Source: Squalus acanthias
Lineage: Eukaryota
NCBI GenBank assembly: GCA_030390025.1
Contig: JASTWF010000277.1
Location: 558,001 to 622,000, forward strand
Direction of reading: 5' to 3'
DNA length: 64,000 bases
A program made the translations under genes and the position numbers. Numbering within the stretch: the first letter of the stretch is position 1; every line of letters begins with the position of its first letter. This document shows positions 2,126 through 59,700 of this stretch, one piece after another. Under the pieces are notes generated by a model that saw nothing but the letters and a program-made list of their open reading frames with translations, searched no databases and was not told the DNA's origin.

Positions 2126-2219
2126 GCTGGGGTTAAATGAGTTCAGTGCATTCGGAAAGAGACAGCTGGAGTTACTGCAGGAAACAAGACCCGGATTGAG
2201 CGTGACCGTCCACTTTTAA
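2126..2219 (+). CDS. NLR terminal coding exon
   Basis: ttcag acceptor; encodes LGLNEFSAFGKRQLELLQETRPGLSVTVHF* with TAA at 2217-2219, in frame with the two upstream exons. Confidence 0.85.
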
Positions 2220-2605: not shown

Positions 2606-2644
<39 letters not shown>

Positions 2645-16779: not shown

Positions 16780-17780
16780 CTTTGAGCAGAGAGATAAGTG
16801 TAAGATGTTTCCTAATAGTTAACGGGAGACAGTTTATGATAAACAGCTACAGAGTGCATGCAGATTGATCAGTGTAGAAATATCTCTGATAGTTCCCGGG
16901 AGCAGTGTGTGTGATTGGTAGCTGCCTATTTTAGGCACATTGATCAGTGTATTAATGTCTCTGATAGTTTCCGGGAACAGTGTGTGTGATTGGTAGCTGC
17001 CTATTTTAGGCACATTGATCAGTGTAGAAATGTATCTGATATTTCCCGGGAGCAGTGTGTGTGATTGGTAGCTGACTATTTTAGGCAAATTGATCAGTGT
17101 ATTAATGTCTCTGATAGTTCCCAGGAGCAGTGTGTGTGATTGGTAGCTGCCTATTTTAGGCAGATTGATCAGTGTAGAAATGTCCCTGATAGTTCCCGGG
17201 AGCAGTGTGTGTGATTGGTAGCTGCCTATTTTAGGCACATTGATCAGTGTAGAAATGTCCCTGATAGTTCCCGGGAGCAGTGTGTGTGATTGGTAGCTGC
17301 CTATTTTAGGCACATTGATCAGTGTATTAATGTTACTGATAGTTTCCGGGAACAGTGTGTGTGATTGGTAGCTGACTATTTTAGGCACATTGATCAGTGT
17401 ATTAATGTCTCTGATAGTTTACGGGAACAGTGTGTGTGATTGGTAGCTGCCTATTTTAGGCACATTGATCAGTGCAGAAATGTATCTGATATTTCCCGGG
17501 AGCAGTGTGTGTGATTGGTAGCTGCCTATTTTAGGCACATTGATCAGTGTAGAAATGTCCCTGATAGTTTCCGGGAGCAGTGTGTGTGATTGGTAGCTGA
17601 CTATTTTAGGCAGATTGATCAGTGTATTAATGTATCTGATAGTTCCCAGGAGCAGTGTGTGTGATTGGTATCTGCCTATTTTAGACAGATTGATCAGTGC
17701 AGAAATGTCTCTGATAGTTCCTGGGAGCAGTGTGTGTGATTGGTAGCTGCCTATTTTAGGCAAGTTGATCAGTGTAGAAA
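16780..17780. repeat. 75-bp satellite, variant B (left part, interrupted by CR1)
   Basis: Unit TTGATCAGTGTAGAAATGTCCCTGATAGTTCCCGGGAGCAGTGTGTGTGATTGGTAGCTGCCTATTTTAGGCACA; resumes in register at ~24991. Confidence 0.93.
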
Positions 17781-17880
17781 TATAGAAATATAGAAACATA
17801 GAAAATAGGTACAGGAGTAAACCATTCGGTCCTTCGAGACTGCACCGCCATTCAATGCGTTCATGGCTGAACATGCTACC

Positions 17881-20816: not shown

Positions 20817-20863
20817 ATTACTTCCCCTTGTTTCGCTACATAGGTTCCCATTCCCCTGCCATA

Positions 20864-21808
20864 TTAGTTTAAATCATTCCGAACTGCATTAGCAAATATT
20901 ACCCCGAGGACATCGGTTCCAGTCCTGCCCAAGTGCAGACCATCCCTTTTGTACAGGTCCCACTTCCCCCAGAACTGGTTGCAATGCCTCAGGAATTTGA
21001 AACCCTCCCTCCTGCACCACTGCTCAAGCCACGTATTCAATCTCACTATCCTGTTCTCTCTATTCTGATTAGCACGTGGCCCTGGTAGCAATCCAGAGAT
21101 TACTACCTTATAGGTCCTACTTTTTAATTTAGCTCCTAGCTCCCTAAATTCTGCTTGTAGGACCTCTTCCCGCTTTTTACCTATATCGTTGGTACCGACA
21201 TGCACCACGACAGCTGGCTGTTCACCCTCCCTCTTCAGAATGTTCTGCAGCCGCTCCGAGACATCTTTGACCCTTGCACCAGGGAGGCAACATACCATCC
21301 TGGAATCTCGGTTGCGGCCACAGAAATTCCTGTCTATTCCCCTTACAATTGAGTCCCCTATCACTATAGCCCTACCACTCTTTTTCCCGCCCTTCTGTGC
21401 AGCAGAGCCAGCCATGGTGCCATGAACCTGGCTGCTGGTGCCTTCCCCTGGTAGGCCATCTCCCCCAACAGTATCCAAAGCGGCATACCTGTTTTGGAGG
21501 GAGAAGACCACAGGGGACTCCTGTACTACCTTCCTGATATTGCCCTGCTTCTTTGTCACCCATTCACTGTCTGTCCTAGCCTTTACCTGCGGTGTGGACA
21601 ACTCACTAAATGAGCGATTCACCGAGTTCTCAGCATCGTGCATGCTCCAGAGTGAGTCCACCCGCAGCTCCAGCACCGCCATGCGGGCTGTCAGGAGCTG
21701 CAGCTGGACGCACTTCCCGCACACGTAGCTGTCAGGGACACTGGAAGTGTCCCTGGTTTCCCACATTGCACAGGAGGAGCATGAAACGGGTCCGAGACTT
21801 CCTGTCAT
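20864..21808 (-). CDS. CR1 ORF1 (zinc finger/leucine zipper + SGNH esterase domain), 314 aa
   Basis: CSSC...CGKC, heptad leucines, GDSIVRG, CLPGA, HVGTND and DGLH motifs. Confidence 0.93.
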   Translation of the reverse strand: MTGSLGPVSCSSCAMWETRDTSSVPDSYVCGKCVQLQLLTARMAVLELRVDSLWSMHDAENSVNRSFSELSTPQVKARTDSEWVTKKQGNIRKVVQESPVVFSLQNRYAALDTVGGDGLPGEGTSSQVHGTMAGSAAQKGGKKSGRAIVIGDSIVRGIDRNFCGRNRDSRMVCCLPGARVKDVSERLQNILKREGEQPAVVVHVGTNDIGKKREEVLQAEFRELGAKLKSRTYKVVISGLLPGPRANQNRENRIVRLNTWLEQWCRREGFKFLRHCNQFWGKWDLYKRDGLHLGRTGTDVLGVIFANAVRNDLN

Positions 21809-22161
21809 GACTTATCCCTTATGTTACTTTATTACTAAAATTTAAACTTATTTATCTTAGGTCCAGGAGTTAAGTCCCTGAAAACAAATATAAAATCAAA
21901 CCTACCTTTTAAATTCCCTCTACCCCTAATGGTTAGAGGAGGTGGGAGGGTGGGTGTCACTACTAGGGTAGTGTCTCGGCTTTAGCAACCGCTCCACCTA
22001 TATACGGGTACCAATGAATTGGCCCCGCCCCCTGCCTTTGAAAAAGCCCGCGAAGCTCTTTCCCCGCTGGGGAAAAAGTCCACGTCGGTGAGTTTAATGA
22101 CTCCCCTCAGGCCTCCGCCGCTCCAACCAGGACCGCCCCTCCCTCCCCGCTGCCGACCGCT

Positions 22162-24990: not shown

Positions 24991-26220
24991 TGTCTGTGAT
25001 AGTTCCCGGGAGCAGTGTGTGTGATTGCTAGCTGCCTATTTTAGGCAGAGTGATCAGTGTAGAAATGTCTCTGATAGTTCCCGGGAGCAGTGTGTGTGAT
25101 TGGTAGCTGCCTATTTTAGGCAGATTGATCACTGCATTAATTTCTCTGACAGTTTTCGGAAGCAGTATGTCTGATTGGTAGCTGCCTATTTTAGCCAGAG
25201 AGATATGTGCAGAAATTTCTCTGCCAGTTCACTGGAGGAGAGCGGGTGATAAATAGTTGCAGACTGTAGGCAGGGAGATAAGTTTAGGAAGTTCTCTGAC
25301 AGTTCCCGTGATGGCAGTGCGCAATTGATGGCTGCAGACTTTCTGCAGAGAGATACATGCTGAAATTCCCGGGAGGAGAGTTTGGGATTGGCAGCTGGAG
25401 ACTGTATACAGAGAGGGAAGTTCAGGTATTTTTCTGCCAGTTCTCTGGAGGAGAGTGGGTGATTGACAGCTGCAGACTGTATACAGAGAGGGAAGTTCAG
25501 GTATTTTTCTGCCAGTTCACTGGAGGAGAGTGGGTGATTGGCAGCTGCAGACTGTATACAGAGAGGGAAGTTAAGGAATTTATCTGCCAGTTCACTGGAG
25601 GAGAGTGGATGATTGACAGCTACAGACTGTATACAGAGAGGGAAGTTCAGGTATTTTTCTGCCAGTTCACTGGAGGAGAGTGGGTGATTGACAGCTGCAG
25701 ACTGTATACAGAAAGGGAAGTTCAGGAATTTATCTGCCAGTTCACTGGAGGAGAGTGGGTGATTGACAGCTGCAGACTGTATACAGAGAGGGAAGTTCAG
25801 GTATTTTTCTGCCAGTTCACTGGAGGAGCGAGGGTGATTGACAGCTGCAGACTGTATACAGAGAGGGAAGTGTAGGAATTTATCTGCCAGTTCACTGGAG
25901 GAGAGTGGGTGATTGGCAGCTGCAGACTGTATACAGAGAGGGAAGTTAAGGAATGTATCTGCCAGTTCACTGGAGGAGAGTGGGTGATTGACAGCTGCAG
26001 ACTGTATACAGAGAGGGAAGTTCAGGTATTTTTCTGCCAGTTCACTGGAGGAGAGTGGGTGATTGACAGCTGCAGACTGTATACACAGAGGGAAGTTCAG
26101 GTATTTATCTGCCAGTTCACTGGAGGAGAGTGGGTGATTGGCAGCTGCAGACTGTATACAGAGTGGGAAGTTAAGGAATTTATCTGAAGGCTGCCGGGAG
26201 GAGAGGGGTGATTGGCAGCT
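24991..26220. repeat. 75-bp satellite, variant B grading into variant C
   Basis: Variant C unit GCCAGTTCACTGGAGGAGAGTGGGTGATTGACAGCTGCAGACTGTATACAGAGAGGGAAGTTCAGGTATTTTTCT; 25-aa periodic pseudo-ORF. Confidence 0.93.
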
Positions 26221-26264
26221 TCAGATGACGTGTACAAAGTAAAATACAAGGATGGAAAAGAAAA

Positions 26265-37910: not shown

Positions 37911-38090
37911 CTAGGAGATGTGGCAGCGACAACTGAACAGATAGTCTCAATCTTAGCGACTGAAGACCCTGAGCTCCTCACACTTGTTTTTGGAGGTGAC
38001 GGTGAAAGAGACAGCGTAGAGGGATTTAAGGAGATTGTTTGTCGTGGGATATCTTTGATCTACTGGAGTAGTGGGCCGATTTTGCAGTGT

Positions 38091-40252
38091 TACATAGATA
38101 CATAGAAGATAGGAGCAGGAGTAGGCCAACCGGCCCTTCGAGCCTGCTCCGCCATTTAATGAGATCATGGCTGATCCTCGAATTCAGTATCCCGTCCCCG
38201 CCTTCTCTCCGTAACCCTTAACCCCTTTTGCCTGTAGAAATATATCTAATTCCCTCTTAAATATATTTAATGAGCTGGCGTACACTGCCCTCTGTGGCAA
38301 TGAGTTCCACAGGTTCACCACCCTCTGAGTGAAGAAATTCCCCCTCATTTCTGTCCTAAATGGTTTAGCCCTTATCCTTAAATTATGTCCTCTAGTTCTG
38401 TTCTCACCCGCCAAGGGAAACATTCCTTCTGCATCTAGTCTGTCTAGACCTGTCAGAATTTTATACACTTCTATGAGGTCCCCTCTCAATCTTCTAAACT
38501 CCAGTGTGTACATCCCTAAACTACATAGTCTCTCCTCATAGGTCAATCCCGCCATTCCTGGTATCAGCCTGGTGAATCGCCGCTGCACCCCCTCCATGGC
38601 AAGAACATCTTTCCTCAGATGAGGCGACCAAAACTGTACACAGTACTCGAGGTGTGGTCTCACCAGTGCCCTGTACAGCTGCAGCAAGGTATCCCTGTTC
38701 CTGTATTCCAACCCTTTTGCTATGAAGGCCAGCATACCGTTTGCCTTCTTGACCGCCTGTTGCACCTGCATGCTCGCCTTCAGTGACTGGTGTACAAGAA
38801 CACCCAGGTCTCTCTGTACTTCCCCCTCTCCCAATTTATTGCCATTTAAATAATAATTTGCCCTCCCGTTCCTGCACCCAAGGTGGATAACTTCGCACTT
38901 GTCCACATTATAGTGCATCTGCCATTTATCCGCCCAATCACCCAGTCTGTCCAAATCGCTCTGGAGCTTCCTGGTCTCCTCCTCTGAGCCCACCCCCCCT
39001 CCTAGTTTAGTGTCGTCTGCAAATTTGGAAATGCTGCATCCGACTCCCTGATCCAGGTCATTAATGTAAATTGTGAACAGCTGGGGACCCAGGACAGATC
39101 CCTGTGGTACCCCACTTGTTACTGCCTGCCATTCAGAAAATGAGCCGTTTATTCCAACTCTCTGTTTTCTATCTGACAGCCAGTTCTCTATCCACGTCAA
39201 TACTTTCCCCTTTATCCCATGAGCTTCAATTTTCCATGCTAATCTTTTATGTGGGACCTTGTCGAAGGCCTTTTGGAAGTCCAGGTACACCACATCTACT
39301 GGCTCTCCCCCATCTATTTTACCAGTTACTCCCTCAAAAAATTCCAATAGATTAGTCAAGCACGATTTACCCTTTGTAAATCCATGTTGACTCTGTCCTA
39401 TCCTGTCCCCATTTGCTAAGTGCTCCGCTATTTCATCCTTAATGATGGACTCCAGCATTTTGCCCACAACTGATGTAAGGCTTACAGGTCTGTAATTACC
39501 TGCTTTTTCCCTACCCCCCTTTTTGAATAGTGGGGTAACGTTAGCTACCCTCCAATCCATGGGCACTGTTCCCGAGTCTAATGAATTCTGAAAAATCATA
39601 CTTAGTGCATCCGCTATCTCTAGGGCCACCTCCTTCAGTACCCTAGGATGCATGTTATCAGGCCCTGGGGATTTGTCCGCCTTCAATCCCTTTAGCTTCC
39701 TTAACACCATATCCTTAGAGATATTGATTTGCGTCAGTTCCTCCTTTGCCCATGTCCCTATTTTTCCCGATATCCCAGGGAGGTTTTTTGTGTCTTCCTT
39801 CGTAAAGACTGACCCAAAGTATGCATTTAGTTGGTCTGCCATTTCCTTATTTCCCGTTATATATTCCCCCGTATCTGACTGCAATGGACCAACTTTGGTT
39901 TTCACCAGTCTTTTCCTCTTGATATACTTATAAAAGCTTTTGGAGTTAGTTTTTATATTTTCCGCCAGCTTGCTTTCGTAAGCTATTTTGCCCCTCTTGA
40001 TTAAGCCCTTTGTCCTCCTTTGCTCTATCTTAAACCGTTCCCAATCTTCCGCTCTGGCGCTTTTTTTGGCTATTTTATACGCCCTATCTTTGGATTTTAT
40101 GCTGTCTCTAATTTCCCCTGTTATCCACGGTTGAGTCACCTTTTTAGATTTCCTTTTATGCCAGATTGGTATAAACAATTTTTGCAATTTTGTCATTCTA
40201 TCTTTAAATGCTTGCCATTGTTTATCTACCTCCAGTCCTCCCAGGAATGTTG
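38091..40252 (-). mobile_element. Young 5'-truncated CR1 with an uninterrupted 670-aa ORF2 portion (38184-40196), inserted in an older L2-like remnant
   Basis: Intact RT motifs; tctatgta tail; flanks 37915-38090 and 40253-40400 appear to continue one old element. Confidence 0.95.
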
Positions 40253-41624
40253 AGCTCGGTCTGACTGTGCTTGACGGATCTAGTGATGGAAGAACAAGGT
40301 TTGCGCCGCATACTCTGAAATCTGTGGCTCTTAGAATTGACGGAGTGAAGATGGAGCCAAACCTCGTGGAAAAAGCAAGTTGTTACTAGGGACAAGGTCA
40401 TCAACGTTGGAGGCGAATGAATAAATCGAGGACATGGAGTAGACAGTGAGAGAGATTCAAAAGTGAGAGAATCATGAGGGAGTCTTACGTGTTGGAGCTT
40501 TGTGCTTAATTAACTATCCAACCAAATTAGAGAACTACAAGAACACCAGCACTCTCCAATATACTTCTACGAATCTGTAATACATTTATTCATAACTGAA
40601 AGCTTACAATAACTGTACAATCAAACGCACATTATTTTATATTGCTATTAAAAACCTCTTAAATCTGGTAACAGCAATGCAGCAATACCCTGCAAACAGT
40701 AGTTCAGCAAACTACTGTGAAACCTGAGTAAAATTTGTATTTCCCTCATGGGTGTTAAGCATCGGCTGGGCGTAGTGTAGGGAGGCAAATCTGGAAGGGG
40801 CGGATCTCACGGTTATAGCTAAAATGGAACACCATTAATATTAATGGACAGGAAGTCAGTCGTGTTCCATAAGGAGAGTTAGATCACTGGCGCTAAAAAA
40901 AACAAATACCAGGAGGTAGGATGGGCATCACTCGCAGATTGCATTTCTATATACGGCCATTTGCAAACAAAAGTTTCTCTGGATAATATTGAAAGGTGTT
41001 AAATGGCAATGACAATTGGCTTGCTCGGCTCTGGACCTCTTGTTGAGTGGGGCGCACCTTTTCCGGGGGGAGCTGCAAATATTCTACTGGTGCACCATCT
41101 TGTAGATGTTGGAGTCGTCACCGAATGTTTTGAAGGTGTCTCGATGAGTCTAAAAGGAAGAACGGCAAAATGCTAAAAAGAGCATTGTTCCAGTCGGCGG
41201 TCAGTAACGGAAAATATTGCACCACTGTAACGGATTTTGATTGTCTGCTGACAGTTATATTTTCAGATGAAGTTATCAGCTCATGTTCATTTGTGTAAAA
41301 ACCAGGAAGGACTCGCGAGCAGCAACAAGGAAACAGGAGATTCTGGAAACAATTAGCGGCCTGAACTTTCCGGTGTACGAGGCATAAACCGCGTGTGATG
41401 AGATTGAACGCCCGCAGAACTGACATGGATGGAATGGAAATCGGGAATGTTCACAAAGGCAGAATCCATATCGTCTGTTTTTCACCCCCCAAAAGGTGAA
41501 AGTTCCAGCGCCTACTTCCCACAGCACACACAATGAGTAGGGACACATGACGAGTCCAGGAGGTTTACAAAAAAATATTGTTGTAAGACATGGAGACCTC
41601 ACAATTCGAGCTATCTGGAGCTCC

Positions 41625-41890
41625 TCCCCACCCCACCTGATATCCACAGCTCATCCTCACCCCACCTAATGTCTTCAGTTCCTCCCCACCCCAACTAATA
41701 TCTTCAGCTCATCTCCGCCCACCTACTAGCTTCAGCTCCTCCCCACCCCGCCGAATTACTTCATCTTCACCCCACCCCACCTAATATCTGCACCTTCTCC
41801 CCAGGCCATCTACTATACTCATCCCCGCCCCACCCCACCTAATATAATATGGTCCTCCCCACCCCACCAATTATCTTCAGCTGATCTACA
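41625..41890. repeat. 29-bp degenerate repeat (AGCTCCTCCCCACCCCACCTAATATCTTC)n
   Basis: About 9 units read directly. Confidence 0.85.
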
Positions 41891-41894
41891 CCCT

Positions 41895-42385
41895 TTAAGC
41901 TACAAGGTGCATGTTTACAGGTCTGGAAGATTAGTAAGGGCAACTGAACGTGTTCTGTTGGTTTAACTTACATGGTGCATGTTTATAGGCCTGTTGGACA
42001 ATTAAGGGCGAGCGTTCGCCCCCTGATGGTTTAAGCTACATGGTGCATCTTAACAAGTCTGCAGTATGAGTAAGGGCGAGTGTGCGCCCCCTGGTGGTTT
42101 AATGTAGAAAGTGCATATAACCAGGTCTGTAGTTTGAGTAAGGGCGAGTGTGCGCCCCCTGGTGGTTTAATGTACACAATGCCACTTACCAGGTCTGTAG
42201 TGAGCGTAAGGGTGCGTGTGCGCACCCTGCTGGCTTAATGTACACAATGCATTTTACCAGGTCTGCAGTGAGGGTTGGGGTGAGTGTGCGCTCCTGGACT
42301 TAATGTGAACAATGCATTTTACCAGATCTGTAGTGTGAGTAAGCGCGAGTGTGCGCCCCTGGTGGTTTAATGTGGAATGTGCGGT
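41895..42385 (-). promoter_or_regulatory. 68-bp tandem repeat carrying co-oriented CTCF-consensus motifs
   Basis: CCACCAGGGGGCGC on the minus strand at 42084-42097 and 42152-42165; near matches at 42017-42029, 42220-42233 and 42353-42365. Confidence 0.7.
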
Positions 42386-44334
42386 GCTGTTTCATGCAAC
42401 TTCGAGTTTCAGATCGTGAATTAAATCTTTATAAAACAGTTGAGGGACCATTACATATTTTACACAGAAATAATTATTTTCCGAAGAGTAATTCTAAAAG
42501 CCAATAATTTATTCGACAGTTTGAAGGAATGACTAACGTGGTTACAGAGTGACGGGGATAACTTTATTAACCTCTGCCCCATTGCACTGAATTTGATGAA
42601 CTTTCATCTTTTCTCACTTTATAGACTATTTTTAGGGTCTTGGTAAAAATCTTCAATGTTTATAACACAGGGAACTCAGTGAGAAACTGTTCAGTTTAAC
42701 AGGGTCCGGTCTGTCTGAAGACTAACAGACAACCAGTTACACAAGGCACTGGTTGGGAATCCGGGGAATGTAAGTCTCTGCTAGAAACAGAAGCATCGTG
42801 TCGGAAACAAAGTTCAAGTGCCCGCAGAAACAGAGACTTGCAATGGAAATAAAACTGCCCAGAGTTTAGCGCTCACACATCTGTTTGTTACACCTACACG
42901 TTAAAGACTCAAAGCTCTGCACAACTCTGTCGCAGTAATATCTTGATTCCTAGGAATAGGCAGTAATGCGCTGTCTAAGGCGGCCATCGCTGCTATCCGC
43001 CGTCGCCTCGCTCACTCTGGGAACCTGGGAGCAGCGAAAAATTGATTCGCAAAAATCTGTTTAGAGTTTCGAGTTTGCACATAATTTTACAAAGAAAGAG
43101 ACATTTTACAGGTGTTTTGATGTATTGCATTATATTAATAGTTAGATACAAACTTTAATTATTACTAAAGGGCACTGGGGGAGGGCGCATACAGACGCAA
43201 GAATAATTTATTGAGGACACTGCACGTTTATCCTCCTCTCCGTTCACAGACAAAGACACTGTGGGTTCGGGATCAAGGTGGGGGAATCAGGCACTGTTTG
43301 GATGAGGTGCTGTGAACTGTGAAAATTGGGTTTGACTGACAGGCCAGGGTTATATGAGGGGAGGCAGAACGAGTGGTCTCTCTATCTGCTCCTCGGTTGT
43401 GCTGTGAAGGAAATAGCCATATTCCAAGAAATACATGATCCTATAAACAAATTTGATAATATTAAAACATGACAAACTGGGGTTAAAAATCTAAAAGCCT
43501 CAACGACACAAGTCATAAAACAGAAATAAAGGCTTCTGAGATAAAGATCAGTTGTTAACAAAGTTGCAATGGGAAATGTTTATAAATACAAAGACATGGC
43601 CCTATTGAAACAGCAGGCTGGAGGTTCCTCTATGTCTGAACATTGGAACCAACACAATGGAATGACGGAAGTAAAGTGACAAAATCTAACACGTCGAACA
43701 GGTGCACACAACATTAAAAAATCAAGTGCCTTTGAAAAAATGACCAAGTAAAAGAAATACCTGTCGTTAAATAGTTTTATGTTAAAATTAGAACAAGGAG
43801 ACATGATTCTTAATATAACCAAGTGAAATAACTAAGAAATGTAAAGAACACCCTAGATGAAGTGTTTTTGAATTACAAATTGTAAAAATTACCTACAGAG
43901 AGACTTTGTAGCTATTACATCAGTAGACGACCCCAAGCAATTACATTGTTTATGTGTTAAACTTGGAACGCAAAGAGACAGGAGTCTGTGTTACAAACAG
44001 CAGACGTGATTTAGAAATTCAATCGAAAGACTTCCTAAGAATGGCATCAAATAGATAAATCGATAATAAACATAAAAATGATAAGTTATTGAAACACCTA
44101 AAGGTAGAGACACAATCTGTTTGCAACAGTTGAAACGAAAGTAAGAATAGAAAACAATTCAATAGTGTATCACAAGAGACAATTAGCTTACATTAAGAGA
44201 ATACTTCAAAGACAATAACACTAAAAAGAGTATAAAAATAAGAGCTTTTCAGATGAAAAGTCAGAAGTCGCTGGATGGGCAAGCGTTTACAGAAAGTTGA
44301 CAGAATCCCCACAGTGCAGATAGAGGCCATTTCG

Positions 44335-47300
44335 GTGGTGCAGTGGGTTATCAATTGCCCTTTCCCCTCTCTCTGGTGGGGGAGAGTGGGTACAGTGGGT
44401 TAACAATTGCCCTTTCCCCTCTCTTTGGTGGGGGAGTGCGGGTACAGTGGCTTAACAACTGCCCTTTCCCTTCTCTCTGATGGGGGAGTGGGTGTACAGT
44501 GGGTTAACAATGGCCCTTTCCTCTCTTTCATTTGGGGAGTGGGGTTACAGTGGGTTATCAATTGCACTTTCCCCTCTCTTTGTTGGGAGAGTGGGGGTAC
44601 AGTGGGTTAACAATTGCCCCTTCATCTCTCTCTGGTGGGGGAGTGGGGATACTGTGGGTTAACAATTGCCCTTTCCCCTCTCTTTGGTGGGGGAGTGGGG
44701 GTAGAGTGTGTTAACAACTGCCCTTTCCCCTCTCTCTGGTGGGGGAGTGGGGGTACAGTGGATTAACAATTGTCCTTTCCCCTCTCTCTGGTGGGAAAGT
44801 GGGGGTACAGTGGGTTAACAATTGCCCTTTCCCCTCTCTCTGGTGGGAGAGTGGGGGTACAGTGGGTTAACAATTGCCCTTTCCCCTCTCTGTTGGAGAG
44901 TTGGTAAATAGTGGGTTAACAATTGTCCTTTCCCCTATCTCTGGCGGGGGTGTGGGGGTACAGTGAGTTAACACTTGCCCTTTCCTCTCTCTGTTGGAGA
45001 GTGGGGGTACAGTTGGTTAACATTTGCACTTTCCTCTCTCTGCTGGGGATTGGGGGTACAGTGGGTTAACAATGGCCCTTTCCTCTCTTTCTGGTGGGGG
45101 ATTGGGGGGTACAGTGGATTAACAATTGCCCTTTCCCCTCTCTCTGGTGGGGGATTGGGGGGTACAGTGGGTTAACAACTGCCCTTTCCCCTCTCTCTGG
45201 TGGGGGAGTGGTGGTACAGTGGATTAACAAATGTCCTTTCCCCTCTCTCTGGTGTGGGAGTGGAGGTACAGTGAGTTAACACCTGCCCTTTCCTCTCTCT
45301 GTTGGAGAGTGGGTGTACAGTGGGTTAACAATTGCCCTTTCCCCTCTCTCTGGTGGGGGAGTGAGGGTACAGTTGGTTAACAACTGCCCTTTCCCCTCAC
45401 TCTGGTGGGGGAGCGGAGGTACAGTGAGTTAACAATTGCCCTTTCCCCTCCCTGTTGGGGAGTGGGGGTACAGTGGGTTAACAATTGTTCTTTACTCTCT
45501 CTCATGTGTGGAAGTGGGGGTACAGTGGGTTAACAATTGTTCTTTACTCTCTCTCATGTGTGGAAGTGGGGGTACAGTGGGTTAGCAATTGCCCTATCCC
45601 CTATCTCTGCTGGGGGAGTGCGGGCGCATTGGGTTAACAATTGCCCATTCCTCACTCTCTGGTGGGGGCGTGGGGGTACAGTTGGTTAACACTTGCTCTC
45701 TCCCCTCTTTCTGGTGGTGAGTGGGGGTACAGTGAGTTATCAATTACCCTCTACTCTCTCTGTTGGTGAGTGGGGGTACAGTGGGTTAACAATTGCCCTT
45801 TCCCCTCTCTCTGGTGGGAGTTGCAGTACAGCGGGTTAACAATTGCCCTTGCCTCTCTCTCTGGTGGGGGAGTGGGGGTACAGCGGGTTAACAATTGCCC
45901 TTTCTCCACTCTCTGTTGGTGGATTGTGGGGTACAGTACGTTAACAATTGTCCTTTCCTCTCTCTCTGATGGGTGAGTGGGGATACAGTGGGTTAACAAT
46001 TGTCCTTCCCCGTCTCTCTGAGGGGGAGTGGGGTACAGTGTTTGAACTTTTGCCCTTTTCTCTCTCTCAGGTGGGGGAGTTGGAGGTTAATTGGGTTAAC
46101 TATTGCCCTTTTATCTCTCTGGTGGGGGAGTGGCGGTACAGTGGGTTAACACTTGCTCTCTCAACTCTTTCTGCTGGGGGTGTGGGGTACAGTGGGTTAA
46201 TAATTGCCATTTCCCCTGTCATTGGTGTGGGAGTGGGGGTAAAGTGGGTTAAAAAATACCCTTTCCCCTCTCTCTGGTGGGGGAGTGGGGGTACAATTGG
46301 TTAACAATTGCCCATTCCCCTCTTTCTGGTTGGGGAGTGGGGGTACAGTAGGTTAACAATTGTCCTTTCCTCTCTCTGTTGGGAGTGGGGGTGCAGTGAG
46401 TTAACAATTGCCCTTTCCCCTCTATCTGTTGGGGGCGTGGTGTTACAGTGGTTTAAAATTTCCCTTTCCTCTCTCTCTGGTGGGGGAGTGGGGGTACAGT
46501 GGGTTAACAATTGCCCTTTCCTCTCTCTGATGGGGGTGTGGGGGGTACAGTAGGTTAACAATTGCCCGTTCACCTCTCTCTGATGGGGGAGTGGGGGCAC
46601 ATTGGGTTAACAAACGCCCTTTCACCTCTCTCTGATGGGGGAGTGGGGGTACAGCCGGTTAATAATTGCCCTTTCCTCTCTCTCAGGTGGGGGATTGTGG
46701 GTACAGTGGTTTAACAATTGCCCTTTCCTCTCTCTCTGCTGGGGGAGTGGAGGTACAGTGGGTTAACAATTGCCCTTTCACCTATCTCTGCTGGGGGAGT
46801 GGGGGTGCATCGGGTTAACTAATGCCCATTCCTCACTCTCTGTTGGGGGCGTGGGTGTACAGTGGGTTAACACTTGCTCTCTCCCCCCTTTCTGGTGGGG
46901 GATTGTGGGTACAGTGGGTTAACAATTGTCCTTTCCTCTCTCTCTGGTGGGGGAGTGGCGGTACAGCGAGTTAACAAATGCCCCTTCCCCTCTCTCTGGT
47001 GCGGGAATGGGGTACAATGTTTGAACTATTGCCCTTTCATCTCTCTATGTTGGATAAGTGGGGATACAGTGTGTTAAAACTTGCTCTCTAACATCATTCT
47101 GGCGGGGGAGTGGGTGTACAATTGGTTAACAATTGCCCTTTCCCCTCTCTCTGTTGGGGGAGTGGGGGTACAGTGAGTTAACAATTGCCCTTTCCCCTCT
47201 CTCTGGTTGGGGTTGGGGTTACAGTGAGTTAACAATTATTCTTTCCCCTCTATCTGTTGGGGGCGTGGGGTTACAGTGAGTTAACTATTGCCCTTTCCCC

Positions 47301-50300
47301 TCTCTCTGGTAGGGGAGTGGGGGTACAGAGGGTTAAAAATTGCCCTGCTCCCTCTCTCTGTTGGGGAGTGGGGTACAGTGGGTTAACAATTGCCCTTTCC
47401 CTCTATCTGGCGGGGCAGTGTGGGTACAGTGTGTTAACAATTGCCCTTTCCCTCTCTCTGGTGGGGGAGTACGGGTAAAGTGGGTTAACAATTGCCCTTT
47501 CCCCTCTCTCTGGTGGGAGTTGCAGTACAGCGGGTTAACAATTGCCCTTTCTCCACTCTCTGTTGGTGGATTGTGGGGTACAGTACGTTAACAATTGTCC
47601 TTTCCTCTCTCTCTGATGGGTGAGTGGGGATACACTGGGTTAACAATTGTCCTTCCCCGTCTCTCTGAGGGGGAGTGGGGTACAGTGTTTGAACTTTTGC
47701 CCTTTTCTCTCTCTCAGGTGGGGGAGTGGGAGGTTAATTGGGTTAACTATTGCCCTTTTATCTCTCTGGTGGGGGAGTGGCGGTACAGTGGGTTAACACT
47801 TGCTCTCTCAACTCTTTCTGCTGGGGGTGTGGGGTACAGTGGGTTAATAATTGCCATTTCCCCTGTCATTGGTGTGGGAGTGGGGGTAAAGTGGGTTAAA
47901 AAATACCCTTTCCCCTCTCTCTGGTGGGGGAGTGGGGGTACAATTGGTTAACAATTGCCCATTCCCCTCTTTCTGGTTGGGGAGTGGGGGTACAGTAGGT
48001 TAACAATTGTCCTTTCCTCTCTCTGTTGGGGAGTGGGGGTGCAGTGAGTTAACAATTGCCCTTTCCCCTCTATCTGTTGGGGGCGTGGTGTTACAGTGGT
48101 TTAAAATTTCCCTTTCCTCTCTCTCTGGTGGGGGAGTGGGGGTACAGTTGGTTAACAATTGCCCTTTCCTCTCTCTCTGGTTGGGGAGTGTGTGTGCAGT
48201 GTTTTAACAATTGCCCTTTCCCCTCTCTCTGGTGGGAAAGTGGGGGTATAGTGGGTTAACAGTTGCCCTTTCATCTCTCTCTGGTGGGAAAGTGGGGGTA
48301 TAGTATTTTAACAATTGCCCTTTCCTCTCTTTCTGGTGGGGGAGTGTGGGTGCAGTGTGTTAACAATTGCCCTTTCCCCTCTCTCTGGTGGGGAGTGGGG
48401 GTACAGTGGGTTAACAGTTGCCCTTTCCCCTCTCTCTGGTGGGGAGTGGGGGCACAGCGGGTTAATAATTGCCCTTTCCTCTCTCTCAGGTGGGGGAGTG
48501 GGGGTACAGTGGGTTAACAATTGCCCTTTCCTCTCTCTCTGGTGTGGAAGTGGAGGGACAGTGGGTTAACAATTGCCCTTTCACCTATCTCTGCTGGGGG
48601 AGTGGGGGTGCATTGGGTTAACTAATGCCCATTCCTCACTCTCTGGTGGGGGAGTGTGGGTACAGTGGGTTAACAATTGTCCTTTCCTCTCTCTCTGGTG
48701 GGGGAGTGGCGGTACAGTGGGGTAACAAATGCCCTTTCCCCTCTCTCTGGTGCGGGAATGGGGTACAATGTTTTAACTATTGCCCTTTTATCTCTCTATG
48801 GTGGGGGAGTGGGGATACAGTGGGTTAATACTTCCTCTCTAACCTCATTCTGGCGGGGGAGTGTGGGTAAAGTGGGTTAACAATGGTCCTTTCCTCTCTC
48901 TCTGATGGGGGAGTGTGGATAAAGTGGGTTAACAATTGCCCTTTCATCTCTTTCTGGTGGGTGAGTGTGGGTGCAGTGTGTTAACAATTGCCCTTTCCCC
49001 TCTCTCTGGTGGGAAAGTGGGGGTATAGTGGGTTAACAGTTGCCCTTTCCTCTCTCTCTGGTGGGAAAGTGGGGGTATAGTGGTTTAACAATTGCCCTTT
49101 CCTCTCATTCTGGTGGGGGAGTGGAGGTACAGTGGGTTAACATTTACACTTTCCTCTCTCTGTTGGGGAGTGGGGTACAGTTGGTTAACAATTGCCCTTT
49201 CCTCTCTCTCTGGCCGGGGAGTGGGGGTACAGTGGGTTAACGATTTATTCTCTCCCCTCTTCCTGGTGGCGGAGTGGGGTACAGTGCGTTATCAATTGCC
49301 CTTTCCCCTCTCTCTGGTGGGGGAGTGAGGTACAATGGGTTATCAATTGCCCTTTCCCCTCTATCTGGTGGGGAGTTGGGGTACAGTGTGTTAACAACAT
49401 CCCTTTCCCCTCTCTCTGGTGGGGGAGTGGGGGTACAGTGAGTTAACAATTGTCCTTTCCTCTCCCTCTGTTGGGGAGTGGGTGTACAGCGGGTTAACAA
49501 TTGCCCTTTCCCCTCTCTCAGGTGGGGGAGTGGGGGTACAGTGGGTTAACAATTGTTGTTTCCTCTGTCTCTGGTGGGGGGCTGTGTGTACAGCGGGTTA
49601 ACAATTGTCATTTCCCCTCTCCCTGGTGGGGGAGTGGGGGTACACTGGGTTAACAATTGTCCTTTCCTCTCTCTCTAGTAAACAAGGGGAATTATGATGC
49701 CATTAGACGGGAACTGAGTAGGTCTGATTGGACAACGTTCCTGGGAGGACTGGAGGTAGATAAACAATGGCAAGCATTTAAAGATAGAATGACAAAATTG
49801 CAAAAATTGTTTATACCAATCTGGCATAAAAGGAAATCTAAAAAGGTGACTCAACCGTGGATAACAGGGGAAATTAGAGACAGCATAAAATCCAAAGATA
49901 GGGCGTATAAAATAGCCAAAAAAAGCGCCAGAGCGGAAGATTGGGAACAGTTTAAGATAGAGCAAAGGAGGACAAAGGGCTTAATCAAGAGGGGCAAAAT
50001 AGCTTATGAAAGCAAGCTGGCGGAAAATATAAAAACTAACTCCAAAAGCTTTTATAAGTATATCAAGAGGAAAAGACTGGTGAAAACCAAAGTTGGTCCA
50101 TTGCAGTCAGATACGGGGGAATATATAACGGGAAATAAGGAAATGGCAGACCAACTAAATGCATACTTCGGGTCAGTCTTTACGAAGGAAGACACAAAAA
50201 ACCTCCCTGGATATCGGGAAAAATAGGGACATTGGCAAAGGAGGAACTGACGCAAATCAATATCTCTAAGGATATGGTGTTAAGGAAGCTAAAGGGATTG

Positions 50301-53300
50301 AAGGCGGACAAATCCCCAGGGCCTGATAACATGCATCCTAGGGTACTGAAGGAGGTGGCCCTAGAGATAGCGGATGCACTAAGTATGATTTTTCAGAATT
50401 CATTAGACTCGGGAACAGTGCCCATGGATTGGAGGGTAGCTAACGTTACCCCACTATTCAAAAAGGGGGGTAGGGAAAAAGCAGGTAATTACAGACCTGT
50501 AAGCCTTACATCAGTTGTGGGCAAAATGCTGGAGTCCATCATTAAGGATGAAATAGCGGAGCACTTAGCAAATGGGGACAGGATAGGACAGAGTCAACAT
50601 GGATTTACAAAGGGTAAATCGTGCTTGACTAATCTATTGGAATTTTTTGAGGGAGTAACTGGTAAAATAGATGGGAGAGAGCCAGTAGATGTGGTGTACC
50701 TGGACTTCCAAAAGGCCTTCGATAAGGTCCCACATAAAAGATTAGCATGGAAAAGTGAAGCTCATGGGATAAAGGGGAAAGTATTGACGTGGATAGAGAA
50801 CTGGCTGTCAGATAGAAAACAGAGAGTTGGAATAAACGGCTCATTTTCTGAATGGCAGGCAGTAACAAGTGGGGTACCACAGGGATCTGTCCTGGGTCCC
50901 CAGCTGTTCACAATTTACATTAATGACCTGGATCAGGGAGTCGGATGCAGCATTTCCAAATTTGCAGACGACACTAAACTAGGAGGGGGGGGTGGGCTCA
51001 GAGGAGGAGACCAGGAAGCTCCAGAGCGATTTGGACAGACTGGGTGATTGGGCGGATAAATGGCAGATGCACTATAATGTGGACAAGTGCGAAGTTATCC
51101 ACCTTGGGTGCAGGAACGGGAGGGCAAATTATTATTTAAATGGCAATAAATTGGGAGAGGGGGAAGTACAGAGAGACCTGGGTGTTCTTGTACACCAGTC
51201 ACTGAAGGCGAGCATGCAGGTGCAACAGGCGGTCAAGAAGGCAAACGGTATGCTGGCCTTCATAGCAAAAGGGTTGGAATACAGGAACAGGGATACCTTG
51301 CTGCAGCTGTACAGGGCACTGGTGAGACCACACCTCGAGTACTGTGTACAGTTTTGGTCGCCTCATCTGAGGAAAGATGTTCTTGCCATGGAGGGGGTGC
51401 AGCGGCGATTCACCAGGCTGATACCAGGAATGGCGGGATTGACCTATGAGGAGAGACTATGTAGTTTAGGGATGTACACACTGGAGTTTAGAAGATTGAG
51501 AGGGGACCTCATAGAAGTGTATAAAATTCTGACAGGTCTAGACAGACTAGATGCAGAAGGAATGTTTCCCTTGGCGGGTGAGAACAGAACTAGAGGACAT
51601 AATTTAAGGATAAGGGCTAAACCATTTAGGACAGAAATGAGGGGGAATTTCTTCACTCATAGGGTGGTGAACCTGTGGAACTCATTGCCACAGAGGGCAG
51701 TGTACGCCAGCTCATTAAATATATTTAAGAGGGAATTAGATATATTTCTACAGGCAAAAGGGGTTAAGGGTTACGGAGAGAAGGCGGGGACGGGATACTG
51801 AATTGGAGGATCAGCCATGATCTCATTAAATGGCGGAGCAGGCTCGAAGGGCCGGATGGCCTACTCCTGCTCCTATCTTCTATGTAATCTATGTAATCTA
51901 GTGGGGGATTTGTTGTACAGTGGGTTAACAATTGTTCTTTGCTCTCTCTCTGATGTGGAAGTGGGGGTACAGTGGGTTAACAATTGCTCTTTCCCCTATC
52001 TCTGGTGGGGGTGTGTGGTACAGTGGGTTAACAATTGCCCTTTCCCCTATCTCTGGTTGGGCAGTGGGGGTGCATCGGGTTAACAATTGCCCTTTCCTCT
52101 CTCTCTAGTGGGGGATTTGTTGTACAGTGGGTTAACAATTGTTCTTTGCTCTCTCCCTGGTGTGGAAGTGGGGTTACAGTGGGTTAACAATTGCTCTTTC
52201 CCCTATCTCTGGTGGGGGTGTGTGGTACAGTGGGTTAACAATTGCCCTTTCCCCTCTCTGTGGTTGGGGTGTGGGGTACAGTGGGTTAACAATTGCTCTT
52301 TCCCCTATCTCTGGTGGGGGTGTGTGGTACAGTGGGTTAACAATTGCCCTTTCCCCTATCTCTGGTGGGGGTGTGTGGTACAGTGGGTTAACAATTGCCC
52401 ATTCCTCTCTCTCTGGTGGGGAGTGGGAGTACAGTGTGTTAACACTTGCTCGCTCCTCTCTTTCTGCTGTGGGTGTGGGGGATCAGTGGGTTAACAATTG
52501 CCCGTTCCTCTCTCTTGTGGGGGAGTGGGGGTACAATTGGTTAACAAATGTCCTTTCCCCTCTATCTTGTTGGGGAGTGGGGGTACAGTGAGTTAACAAT
52601 TGCCCTGCTCCCTCTTACTGGTGGGGGAGTGTGGATACAATGGGTTAACAATAGCCCTTACTCATCTCTCTGGTGGGGAGTCGGGGTTCAGTCGGTTAAC
52701 ATTTGCCCTTTCCTCTTTCTGTTGGGGAGTGGCGTACAGTGATTTAACAATTGCCCTTTCCTCTCTCTCTGGTCGGGGAGTGGGGGTACAGTTGGTTAAC
52801 AATTGCCCTTTCCCCTCTCTCTGGTGGGGGAGTGGGAGTGCATTGTGTTAACAAATGCCCTTTCCCCTCTATCTGGTGGGGGAGTGGGGTTACAGTGAGT
52901 TAACAATTGCCCATTCCCCTCTCTGGTGGGGGTGTGGGGGTACATTGTGTTAACAATTGCCCTTCCCTCTCTCTCTGATGGCGGAGTGGGGGTACAGTGT
53001 TTTAACAATGGCCCTTTCCTCTCTCTCTGGTGGGGGAGTGGGGGTACAGTGGATTAACAATTGCCCTTTCCCCTCTCTCTGGTGGGGGAGTGGGAGGTAC
53101 AGTTGGTTAACAAGTCCTTTCCCCTTTCTCTGGTGGGGGAGTGGGGGTACAGTGGGCTAACAATTACCCTTTCCCCTCTCTCTGGTGGGGGAGTGGTGGT
53201 ACAGTGGGTTAACAATGGTCCTTTCCCCTCTCTCTGATGGCGTATTTGGGGTACAGTGGGTTAAGAGTTGCCGTTTCCCCTCTCTCTGGTGGGGGAGTGG

Positions 53301-54635
53301 GGGTACAGTGGATTAACAATTGCCCTTTCCCCTCTCGCGGATGGGGGAGTGGGGGGTACAGTGGGTTAACAATTGCCCTTCCCCTCTCTCTGGTTGGAGA
53401 GTGGTGGTACAGTGGGTTAACAATTGCCCTTTCCACTCTCTCTGATGGGGGACTGGGGGTAAAGTGTGTTAACAATTGCCCTTTCCCCTCTCTCTGAAGG
53501 GGGACTGGGGGTAAAGTGTGTTAATAATTGCCCTCCCCCTCTCTCTGGTGGGAGAGTGGGGTTACAGTGTGTTAACAATGGTCCTTTCCCCTCTCTCTGA
53601 TGGGGGAGTGGGGGTACAGTGGGTTAACAATTGCCCTTTCCCCTCTCTCAGATGGTGGGTGGTGGTACAGTGAGTGAACTATTGCTCTTTTCTCTCTCTC
53701 TGGTGGGGAGTGGGGGTACAGTGAGTTAACAATTGCCCTTTCCCCTCTCTCTGGTTTTGGAGAGGGGTACAGTGAGTTAACTATTGCTCTTTTCTCTCTC
53801 TCTGGTGGGGAGTGGTGGTACAGTGTGTTAACAATTGTCCTTTCCCCTCTCTCTGGCGGGGGAGTGTGTGTACAGTGAGTTAACAATGGCCCTTTCCCCT
53901 CTCTCTGGTGGGGGAGTGGGGATACAGTGGGTTAACAATTGCCCTTTCCCCTCTCTCGGGTGGGGGAGTGTGGGTACAGTGGGTTAACAATTGCCCTTTC
54001 CCCTCTCTCTGATGGGGGAGTGTGGGTACAGTGTGTTAACAATGGCCCTTTCCCCTCTCTCTGGTGGTGAGTGGGGGTACAGTGGGTTAACAATTGCCCT
54101 TTCCCCCCTCTCGGGTGGGGGAGTGTGGGTACAGTGGGTTAACAATTGCCCTTTCCCCTCTCTCTGATGGGGGAGTGTGGGTACAGTGTGTTAACAATGG
54201 CCCTTTCCCCTCTCTCTGGTGGTGAGTGGGGTTACAGTGGGTTAACAATTGCCCTTTCCCCTCTCTCTGGTGGTGAGTGGGGTTACAGTGGGTTAACAAT
54301 TGCCCTTTCCCCTCTCTCTGGTGGGGAGTGGGTGTACAGTGAGTGAACTATTGCTCTTTTCTCTCTCTCTGGTGGGGAGTGGGGGTACAGTGAGTTAACA
54401 ATTGCCCTTCCCCCTCTCTCTGGTGGGGAGTGGGGGTACAGTGAGTTAACAATTGCCCTTTCCCCTCTCTCTGGTTTTTGAGAGGGGTACAGTGAGTTAA
54501 CTATTGCTCTTTTCTCTCTCTCTGGTGGGGAGTGGGGGTACAGTGAGTTAACAATTGCCCTTTCCCCTCTCTCTGGTTTTGGAGAGGGGTAAAGTGAGTT
54601 AACTATTGCTCTTTTCTCTCTCTCTGGTGGGGAGT
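44335..54635. repeat. 52-bp satellite (TACAGTGGGTTAACAATTGCCCTTTCCCCTCTCTCTGGTGGGGGAGTGGGGG)n, ~8 kb, interrupted by a CR1
   Basis: Direct reading of the unit; internal higher-order duplication with 1647-bp offset (~45770-46500 vs ~47480-48150). Confidence 0.95.
49678..51900 (+). mobile_element. Young 5'-truncated CR1, near-identical to the copy at 38091-40252, with frameshifts
   Basis: ORF pieces 49657-50226, 50232-51047 and 50992-51801 match the 670-aa ORF almost residue for residue; TCTAGT on both sides is a probable TSD. Confidence 0.95.
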
Positions 54636-55099: not shown

Positions 55100-55408
55100 C
55101 TGTTTCCTTCTGGATGGAATCTCTTATCGCACTCGGAATATCCTGATGGCTCACCACGCAGTAGAACTCATCCCCACTCAGCCAGGCTTGTGTCGAGATG
55201 TTGATGTTGCTGATCACGCTGTTGGGATCCTCTCCGGGTTGAACGGCACTGTCTCATTTCAGAATCTCCTTTTCTCGGGTCCAGGTCACGGTGACTCCAT
55301 CAGGAGCCTTGGACACGACGCAGGTTAAGGTCACCGTCGCCTCCAGTAAGACCTGTTCTAATGACGGTTGCCGAAGTGTAATCACTGGACCGTTGCTTGA
55401 GGAAGGAT
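55100..55408 (-). pseudogene. IGHM: IgM heavy chain Cmu3 exon with in-frame stop
   Basis: ttcacag acceptor and G|GTGAG donor, 309 bp; [102 protein letters not shown] resembles shark Cmu3; TGA at 55254-55256. Confidence 0.92.
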
Positions 55409-57515: not shown

Positions 57516-57824
57516 CCTGAGAGCTGACGATGTTTCAGCTTTGGGTGACCCCATCATGAGTGACCTGGCAGGTGTAGACCGAGCCGGTGAACCAATCCCC
57601 GGCGGGCACTGTCAGCAGACTGATCGCCGAGAAGATCCCGTTCACTTCAGAGACGGGAGAGGTGACGAAGCCCGAATGCATGAGTTGTCCATTCTTCAGC
57701 CAATTCACGGTCAGTGACTCTGGACGGAAATCCATGATTGAACACACGACGGTTGCATATTTGCTGCTGGTGATTTGGTCCCTGGCACTCCCCGTGAGGA
57801 TAACAGTTGGATGGATGGAGTCAT
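57516..57824 (-). pseudogene. IGHM: IgM heavy chain Cmu2 exon with in-frame stop
   Basis: ccctag acceptor and G|GTAAG donor, 309 bp; [102 protein letters not shown] is a C1-set Ig domain like shark Cmu2; TGA at 57535-57537. Confidence 0.92.
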
Positions 57825-57939: not shown

Positions 57940-59215
57940 GAGACCAGAACACTGCACAGTATTCTAAGTGTGAAATGGAGACAAGGATTCTGCACAGTAT
58001 TCTAAGTATGATATGGAGACCAGGACTCTGCACAGTATTCTAAGTGTGATATGGAGACCACGACTCTGCACAGTATTCTAAGTGAGATATCGAGAGCAGG
58101 ACTCTGCACAGTATTCTAAGTGTGATTTGGAGACCAGGACTCTGCACAGTATTCTAAGTGTGATATGGAGACCAGGACTCTGCACAGTATTCTAAGTGTG
58201 ATATGGAGACCAGGACTCTGCACAGTATTCTAAGTGTGATTTAGACACTAGGACTCTGCACAGTATTCTAAGTGTGATATGGAGACCAGGATTCTGCACA
58301 GTATTCTAAGTGTGATATGGAGACCAGGACACTGCACAGTATTCACAGTGTGATATGGAGACCAGGGCTCTGCACAGTATTCGAAGTGTGATATGGAGAC
58401 TAGGACTCTGCACAGTATTCTAAGTGTGATATAGAGACCAGGACTCTGCACAGTATTCTAAGTGTGATATGGAGACAAGGATTCTGCACAGTATTCACAG
58501 TGTGATATGGAGACCAGGGCTCTGAGCAGTATTCTAAGTGTGATATGGAGACCAGGACTCTGCACAGTACTCTCAGTGTGATATAGAGACCAGGACTCTG
58601 CACAGTATTCGAAGTGTGATATGGAGACTAGGACTCTGCACAGTATTCTAAGTGTGATATAGAGACCAGGACTCTGCACAGTATTCACAGTGTGATATGG
58701 AGACCAGGGCTCTGAGCAGTATTCTAAGTGTGATATGGAGACCAGGATTCTGCACAGTATTCTAAGTGTGATATAGAGACCAGGACTCTGCACAGTATTC
58801 TAAGTGTGATATGTAGACCAGGGCTCTGCACAGTATTCGAAGTGTGATATGTAGACCAGGACTCTGCACAGTATTCGAAGTGTGATATGTAGACCAGGAC
58901 TCTGAACAGTATTCGAAGTGTGATATGTAGACCAGGACTCTGCACAGTATTCGAAGTGTGATGTGGAGACCAGGATCATGTACAGTATTCTAAGTGTGAT
59001 ATGGAGACCAGAACTGTGCACAGTAATCTAAGTTTGATATGGAGACCAGATTTGTGCTCAGTATTTTAAGTGTGATATGGAGACAATAACTTTGCACAGT
59101 AATCTAAGTGTGATATGGAGACCAGATCTGTGCACAGTACTCTAAGTGTGACATGGAGACCTGAACTGTGCACAGTACACCAAGTGTGATATGGAGTCGA
59201 GGACTGTGCACTGTA
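57940..59215. repeat. 38-bp minisatellite (CTGCACAGTATTCTAAGTGTGATATGGAGACCAGGACT)n, ~33 units, CR1-derived
   Basis: The minus strand encodes HLEYCAESWSPY, compared with HLEYCVQFWSP in the CR1 ORF2s of this window. Confidence 0.9.
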
Positions 59216-59222
59216 CACTAAA

Positions 59223-59700
59223 GCCCAGAAATTTGGGTCCCCACGGGTGAGTACACGCTGTGTACTCACCCGTAGGGGCACCGGAAGTGCCGGTTTCGCG
59301 CATGCACTGCGCATGCACGGGAAACCGGAACTTCCGGTCTTGTGAAGGAAGTGGTTCGCGGGTCAACCGCGTGGGCCGGGAGAGGCAGCGCGAACGTAGC
59401 GAACACTCGGCTTTTTTTTACAGGTTTCTCCCTGCGGGTAGGTCCCTGGCAGCTGCGCGGCAAAAAGCAGGCGCAAGGCCTGCTTTTAACAAGATAAGTG
59501 GTGAATTAAGTAAAATTAAAACATTTTTTCCACAGATTTATTATTTTTAAATACTTTAAAGAAAGCTAAGTTTATTTTTAGCCACGTTAAAAACTGTAAT
59601 TATTTTTTTGAAATGTTCAAATTATTGTTTAAAATAGTGATTTTATAGAATTTATAGTTATTTTAAAAATATGATTTTTGTTGAAATGAACTTAATGAAT
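59223..59700. mobile_element. Probable MITE/DNA-transposon end with two hairpins
   Basis: Starts GCCCAGAAATTTGGG; perfect 14-bp stem 59243-59256/59260-59273; second hairpin ~59280-59338; AT-rich interior. Confidence 0.5.

Follow-up and report, generated by a model that had tools for sequence, protein, structure and literature searches.

A 68-bp minisatellite of co-oriented, predicted CTCF sites between NLR and IgM sequences of Squalus acanthias

Introduction

Sharks possess 15-200 IgH miniloci, and the independent rearrangement of these miniloci is described as a long-standing question (PMC2435157). In Squalus acanthias, a short tandem-repeat array with matches to the CTCF motif lies between an NLR gene and IgM exons, which raises the question of whether it is a boundary of the immunoglobulin genes, as had been proposed from the letters of the DNA (the sequence-only reading), or a repeat with a history of its own. 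Here, the array is analysed within a stretch of 64,000 nucleotides (contig JASTWF010000277.1, positions 558,001 to 622,000), referred to below as the window. According to PMC5504073, the two-part CTCF motif is common to lamprey, chicken, and human, and PMC10115646 reports that CTCF motifs at skate TAD boundaries point inward, i.e., that the orientation rule holds in skate. Together, these reports make it reasonable to use the convergence rule, as well as the motif itself, in a shark.

Anatomy of the array and its CTCF cores

TRF calls a period of 68 over 41955-42373, and manual phasing of the copies on a shared anchor resolves seven minus-strand units of a 68-bp minisatellite at 41894-42384, together with a half-unit at the left edge, in which the upstream motif is present and the core is absent. 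The approx. seven units counted earlier are thus borne out. Pairwise identity among the units ranges from 51 to 84%. Read along the minus strand, each unit consists of a 10-nt upstream motif, a 6-nt linker, 3 nt, a 14-nt CTCF core, and a tail of approx. 35 nt. The core occupies the same offset in all seven units, and all cores share one polarity, that of the minus strand; the earlier statement that the motifs face lower coordinates, along with the orientation reasoning built on it, therefore holds.

Cores were scored with a matrix of the JASPAR MA0139.1 type. With this matrix, the best scores per unit are, from left to right, -6.7, 11.1, 19.5, 19.5, 12.8, -6.1, and 0.5 bits, which corresponds to two perfect cores (19.5 bits), two moderate cores (11-13 bits), one core that is one base short, and two dead cores. 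Four of the seven co-oriented cores thus reach at least 11 bits and span approx. 240 bp, while the remaining three do not score. Both 19.5-bit sites (p = 1.5e-7) outscore everything else in the window, in which the best score outside the array is 11.7 bits.

The best predicted two-part CTCF site is located at 42082-42116 (minus strand, as for all units) and combines a perfect core at 42084-42097 with an upstream motif at 42107-42116. The second site, at 42150-42184, has a perfect core at 42152-42165, found by pattern search and by the matrix, and an upstream motif in which TGCA has changed to GGCA. TGCA is intact at both moderate sites, namely 42218-42252 (core at 42220-42233, 12.8 bits, found by pattern search and matrix) and 42014-42048 (core at 42016-42029, 11.1 bits, found by the matrix). 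Scoring with the matrix also characterises the three remaining units. At 42351-42384, the G run of the core (42353-42365, 0.5 bits) lacks one base, for which either a true deletion or a read error in the homopolymer may be responsible. The core at 42286-42317 is dead owing to a 3-nt deletion and substitutions (-6.1 bits), and that at 41946-41980 is dead with six of 14 positions changed (-6.7 bits) and its CpG retained. Hence, the two perfect minus-strand cores of the sequence-only reading are recovered; of the three near matches that it listed, two score (11.1 and 12.8 bits), whereas the third is the core that falls one base short.

The two-part motif and its chance expectation

Five of the seven units retain TGCA intact, on the same strand as the core and starting 18 nt 5' of it, and the TGCAC/GGCAT/CGCAC-type 5-mers that had been noticed to start at this distance are present as named. 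The upstream 10-mer of the 42082-42116 site matches the IL3 insulator motif at eight of ten positions, and those of the other six units match at five to seven. A consensus core and TGCA occur together in one unit of seven, the one with the 42082-42116 site (one match in the pattern search versus none in 100 shuffles). In the data of PMC12885311, the linker between core and upstream motif ranges from 2 to 7 bp, with 5 bp being the commonest; the 6-nt linker of the shark units falls within this range. Moreover, two spacings that differ by one base are reported for two-part CTCF sites in PMC3368268.

The copies in an array descend from one unit and are not independent; therefore, the chance expectation was counted with one unit per array, over the 22 distinct tandem arrays of the window (1106 unit bases, both strands). 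Only one of the 22 array consensus units exceeds 10 bits. Over these units, approx. 3e-4 cores of 19.5 bits are expected, and approx. 4e-6 if TGCA at either spacing is also required; the corresponding expectations for the whole window are 0.02 (core) and 2e-4 (core and TGCA). So low an expectation for the combined motif argues that the ancestral 68-bp unit was probably a genuine two-part CTCF site.

Decay of the copies and retention of the core CpG

Whether the sites have been maintained since then can be approached by comparing the copies with one another. Among the seven paralogous copies, divergence from the consensus amounts to 18/98 (0.184) in the core, a figure slightly inflated by counting the unit with a deletion by base, and to 69/378 (0.183) outside the core (P = 1.0). 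Motif bases are thus not better conserved than the spacer among these copies, in a comparison whose power is low at n = 7. When neutral evolution is simulated (substitutions only, star tree, per-unit rates), an average of 3.3 units reach at least 10 bits, compared to four observed (P = 0.43), and an average of 0.67 cores are perfect, compared to two observed (P = 0.135). At this low power, there is no sign that the copy number of good sites is maintained. It has been reported that redundancy permits site turnover in real boundary clusters (PMC6945661).

The core with the incomplete G run affects this result. If its missing base were a read error, the array would contain three perfect cores, which exceeds neutral decay (P = 0.019) and would favour selection. 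Two near-identical CR1 copies in the window are three single-base indels apart in 2165 bp; thus, single-base indels do arise here, as errors or as mutations.

The core CpG is kept in all seven copies, including both dead cores, whereas a CpG located 8 nt from it has changed to TG/CA in three of the seven. A direct comparison of core and tail CpGs gives a Fisher P of 0.096, with copies that are related. Two 75-bp arrays, which served as a control for CpG decay, have lost six of 25 CpGs at approx. 6% divergence; scaled to the 68-bp array, this rate predicts 3.8 core-CpG losses (P = 0.003 for none), while at the ordinary site rate, retention has a P of 0.056. Given the relatedness of the copies, retention of the core CpG does no more than hint at protection from methylation. 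The CpG o/e of the array (0.58) is slightly above the window median (0.48). Within the CTCF cores, the CpG is at C12 and none is at C2, and it is methylation of the motif-strand C2 that dominates inhibition of CTCF binding according to PMC10325916. Methylation alone thus need not block binding, which weakens CpG methylation of the cores as the ground on which the sequence-only reading would have given up its proposal.

Proposed amplification of a single CTCF site

The account that we favour, with fair though far from full confidence, is local tandem amplification of one CTCF site, whose copies are now redundant and decaying, and predicted to be still bound and to act as a one-way barrier. The array would have started as a single two-part CTCF site comprising a core for ZF3-7, an upstream motif for ZF9-11, and a 6-nt linker. 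Such a site would have been copied head to tail approx. seven times by local tandem duplication, as would the other minisatellites of the window, with slippage or unequal exchange as the presumed origin. The redundant copies would since have diverged at the background rate, so that two strong and two moderate sites remain.

CTCF occupancy probably persists, as one peak. Owing to the common polarity of the cores, it is proposed that the cluster acts as one barrier with raised occupancy, which would stall cohesin arriving from lower coordinates, i.e., from the NLR side; the predicted barrier is thus probably one-way and faces lower coordinates. One CTCF site spans approx. 33 bp, and ZF3-11 have been crystallised on a 35-bp duplex (PMC10484683), so that a 68-bp period leaves room for all sites. 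The period also equals approx. 6.5 helical turns, which would place neighbouring CTCF molecules on opposite faces of the DNA, perhaps by coincidence. The LINE- and satellite-rich region may form closed chromatin.

Such chromatin is central to one alternative, namely that the array is an unbound, functionless minisatellite and its motif a fossil or a lucky match in methylated, closed chromatin. Decay of the cores at the background rate, a window of which two-thirds is LINE or tandem repeat, and the conversion of the neighbouring CpG to TG/CA in three of seven copies are all compatible with this alternative, as is the report that motif scans alone are poor predictors of bound sites in Hox clusters (PMC5504073). 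However, pure chance is an improbable source of the motif (approx. 4e-6), C2, the dominant position for methylation blocking (PMC10325916), carries no CpG, and the core CpG has been kept in seven of seven copies. We therefore regard an unbound array as unlikely.

The repeat landscape around the array

Tandem repeats account for 33% of the whole window and LINE coding sequence for another 33%. The array lies in a non-LINE island of 4 kb (40253-44336), which has CpG-richer patches at approx. 41.1-41.4 and 42.75-43.2 kb and contains two minisatellites, the 68-bp array and a C-rich 29-bp minisatellite of 9.4 copies (41612-41882) that abuts it and has no CTCF motif (best score, -1.3 bits). Among the 44 island ORFs of at least 38 aa, none exceeds the curated Pfam cut-off, one being sub-threshold (E = 0.014), and none is transposase-like. 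The N-termini of five named elasmobranch NLRs match nothing in the island better than E of approx. 1. One 110-aa island ORF has no homologue among three candidates, and one 111-aa island ORF has a single unnamed match (E = 4e-5, 36% identity over approx. 49 residues). A structured RNA was also considered and rejected, with no Rfam match in the window at gathering thresholds.

A search of the island with 13 simple enhancer and promoter patterns reveals no clear excess and no octamer or NF-kB site; ETS motifs number three versus 1.3 expected, and three palindromic MEF2-like sites account for six strand hits versus 1.7. Right of the array, the CpG-richer patch at 42750-43300 (o/e 0.9-1.0) is rich in GAAA/GGAA along several stretches. 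It also holds a candidate donor near 43111 and a 28-nt sequence at 43250-43277 (plus strand) that might be a micro-exon. The patch has no protein match and could be the 5' end of some transcript.

The array might also belong, as an internal tandem repeat, to a non-autonomous transposon or to another dispersed repeat that spreads CTCF sites genome-wide. There are precedents for such spread, namely hAT and LTR elements in lamprey (PMC5504073) and B2 SINEs in rodents (PMC3368268), and the array does lie in a non-coding island beside another minisatellite. Nonetheless, a search of positions 40200-44400 for terminal inverted or long direct repeats turned up nothing convincing (the longest arms are 21-22 nt, with 73-81% identity), neither the 68-bp unit nor its flanks have a second copy in the 64-kb window, and a transposase-like ORF is missing from the island. 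This origin thus appears quite unlikely.

Several other repeats of the window deserve description. A 52-bp satellite of approx. 157 copies (44337-49676 and 51897-54635) lies directly 3' of Cmu3 and has a weak CTCF-like motif in the orientation of the array's cores, with 35 copies scoring at least 8 bits and three at least 10. Its consensus (8.2 bits) is mismatched at two key core positions and within chance for 22 arrays; it would clear the score-8 threshold used in the skate study (PMC10115646). Kinship between the 68-bp and 52-bp units was tried and rejected, as the best nhmmer match in the 52-bp arrays has an E of 5.2. Two CR1-type LINE copies (38090-40252, minus strand, and 49733-51896, plus strand), which are 99.35% identical and nearly the same in their 5' truncation points, form an inverted pair on either side of the array, with 9.5 kb between them. 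Were they to recombine, the segment would be inverted and the CTCF sites would change polarity. Farther to the left, a near-complete CR1-type LINE (17881-21811, minus strand) encodes an SGNH/GDSL esterase-like domain in its ORF1 (314 aa) and, in an 891-aa open stretch of ORF2, endonuclease and RT domains. The 75-bp-unit arrays are three in number, separate, and related (65-85% alike), and are located at 15097-16030, 16860-17781, and 24993-26225.

The neighbouring NLR and IgM sequences

On the left of the array, an elasmobranch NACHT-LRR gene is represented by its last three LRR exons (1561-2219, plus strand). The exons, at 1561-1647, 1789-1956, and 2126-2219, are in frame to a stop codon at 2217-2219, and the middle one matches five elasmobranch NACHT-LRR proteins, out of 24 candidates, with 58-68% identity. 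From the end of the NLR gene to the array, the distance is 39.7 kb. The NLR intron just ahead of these exons contains a 27-bp-family tandem repeat (1-1425; 78% GC, CpG o/e of approx. 1.2, strong C-strand skew), and the stop codon is followed immediately by approx. three tandem copies of a unit of approx. 1.85 kb (2486-7465), which are approx. 85% identical.

On the right, a tblastn search with the Heterodontus membrane IgM as the query identifies two minus-strand exons, Cmu3 (55104-55406) and Cmu2 (57517-57822), that are 70 and 68% identical to Heterodontus, respectively, and are interrupted by in-frame TGA codons at 55254-55256 and 57535-57537. The splice sites of this orphan pair are intact, with one TGA per exon, and the pair has 38-bp and 22-bp satellites on its upstream side and the 52-bp satellite on its downstream side. 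Separate queries with Cmu1, Cmu4, and TM matched only Cmu2 and Cmu3 crosswise in the 64-kb window, and a motif search of the window revealed no V, J, TM, or secretory tail; in particular, Cmu4 and TM are absent from the 55 kb downstream of Cmu3, where an intact gene would have them. RSS-like sites (heptamer-12/23-nonamer) above 12/16 matches are likewise absent from the window. The IgM is a truncated two-exon pseudogene fragment. That the array might itself be an RSS or D-segment array was also rejected, as its best candidate has 11/16 matches and 136 of the 14,718 window candidates reach at least 11. Between two satellites, positions 59215-59500 hold a short GC- and CpG-rich element, which may be a non-autonomous DNA element. 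It contains palindromic stretches that we take to resemble ETS and NRF1 sites.

The NLR and IgM exons are arranged tail to tail around the array. The distance between Cmu3 and the array, previously given as approx. 13 kb, is 12,720 bp, and 80% of this interval is satellite or LINE; thus, the original 3' flank of the IgM is not evidently preserved. Of the setting proposed earlier, the elasmobranch NLR and IgM exons are confirmed, whereas the IgH "cluster" is reduced to two stop-bearing exons.

Polarity of the array and an IgH boundary

In mouse, ten 3'Igh CBEs are described just downstream of Igh (PMC10293834, PMC7826415). These elements are convergent with IGCR1 CBE2 and the VH CBEs, so they point into the locus (PMC10293834). 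In the shark window, the array is 3' of Cmu3, and the cores and the IgM exons are all on the minus strand; hence, the cores point away from the IgM. In mouse tests, insulation was found to be independent of orientation (PMC7087399), and polarity thus excludes the label of a super-anchor but not insulation as such. Moreover, as the IgM is a two-exon pseudogene fragment, the array does not stand at the 3' end of an intact unit. The reading as a super-anchor of an IgH unit is therefore rejected, given the broken IgM and a polarity opposite to that of the 3'CBEs.

A broader proposal is that the array is under selection as a boundary element in shark IgH (or IgH/NLR) clusters, where it belongs to the duplicated unit and insulates each minilocus; its survival beside a dead copy would then explain its decay. 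This proposal draws on the four co-oriented cores of at least 11 bits, on the position of the array 12.7 kb 3' of Cmu3 between two tail-to-tail immune genes, and on published work, including the orientation independence seen in mouse (PMC7087399), a screen in which two to four tandem sites were required for insulation (as cited in PMC12885311), and the independent rearrangement of shark miniloci (PMC2435157). It is at odds with an IgM that is broken off after Cmu3 and separated from the array by sequence that is 80% satellite or LINE, with the polarity of the cores, opposite to that of the 3'CBEs (PMC10293834), with the lack of excess core conservation among the copies, and with an island that has no octamer, no NF-kB site, and no clear excess of enhancer motifs. 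We consider it improbable. The specific claim that the array insulates a multicluster IgH unit is not sustained, since the IgM is dead, the polarity is reversed, and the cores show no excess conservation. As for a boundary made by tandem amplification, the amplified two-part motif stands, and the role as an IgH boundary or super-anchor does not.

A related and bolder idea, which we hold to be very doubtful, is that elasmobranch immune-gene duplicons regularly include the 68-bp two-part CTCF minisatellite. Equally doubtful is its corollary that the minisatellite provides a compact, copy-number-variable CTCF barrier for each IgH minilocus or NLR cluster. If this were true, the barrier would confine rearrangement and enhancer action to one minilocus, the present copy would be decaying because its IgM died, and the period of 6.5 turns, which places neighbouring sites on opposite faces, would allow full CTCF co-occupancy.

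Returning to local amplification of one site, the array has a regular anatomy, a single polarity, a motif that is not due to chance, and cores that decay at the background rate, and the IgM beside it is dead. We think it reasonably probable that any role of the array was already that of the single ancestral site, or is incidental, and is not that of a dedicated IgH boundary. The array is a real feature, and the CTCF cluster predicted from it is probably genuine, while its reading as an IgH super-anchor is unsupported by the window.

Significance and comparison with known CTCF arrays

The array would be a clean case from a cartilaginous fish in which CTCF sites multiplied because a minisatellite was amplified, which is a different route from dispersal by transposons. 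In lamprey and mammals, repeats are known to have spread CTCF sites (PMC5504073, PMC3368268), and both subtelomeric CTCF sites (PMC7374410) and the effects of upstream motifs on CTCF occupancy (PMC13470930) have been described. In the literature searched, outside which most subscription papers lie, no CTCF array at shark IgH or NLR loci and no 68-bp repeat of this kind was found, which does not prove their absence. Recurrence of the unit at intact IgH miniloci would provide a testable cis-element for independent minilocus rearrangement; as the IgM here is a dead fragment, such recurrence cannot be shown from this window.

CTCF arrays built into tandem repeats are already known, and the shark array appears to resemble them in outline. 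The Xenopus rDNA repeat organizer consists of approx. seven tandem repeats of roughly 100 bp with CTCF sites and enhancer-blocking activity; unlike the shark array, it belongs to an rDNA context. In Dxz4/DXZ4, FIRRE, and ICCE, the repeat unit likewise carries CTCF motifs of one polarity (PMC6985041), and a directional cohesin barrier would be the expected behaviour common to Dxz4-type arrays and the shark array. However, DXZ4 has a 3-kb unit, and its CTCF binding and boundary activity have been demonstrated (PMC6985041), whereas the shark array measures 0.5 kb in all, is built of 68-bp units, and has three non-scoring cores out of seven. The CTRL1/CTRL2 and CTRS1-3 insulators of HSV-1 are also compact clusters of short reiterated CTCF motifs (PMC12106088); in contrast to the shark array, they are viral and their occupancy and insulator activity have been demonstrated (PMC12106088); no sequence relation is implied.

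The mouse 3'Igh CBE super-anchor shares with the shark array several co-oriented CTCF motifs 3' of immunoglobulin heavy constant exons. In mouse, the ten elements follow the 3' regulatory region of a locus that is functional (PMC7826415, PMC10293834), whereas the shark cores point away from a two-exon pseudogene. Finally, two-part sites of the IL3 insulator type (M1+M2, or core+U) combine, as the shark unit does, a core with an upstream TGCA-type motif (PMC3368268, PMC12885311). Compared to the sites described there, the shark array has a linker of 6 nt instead of the commonest 5, and its copies conserve the motif no better than the spacer.
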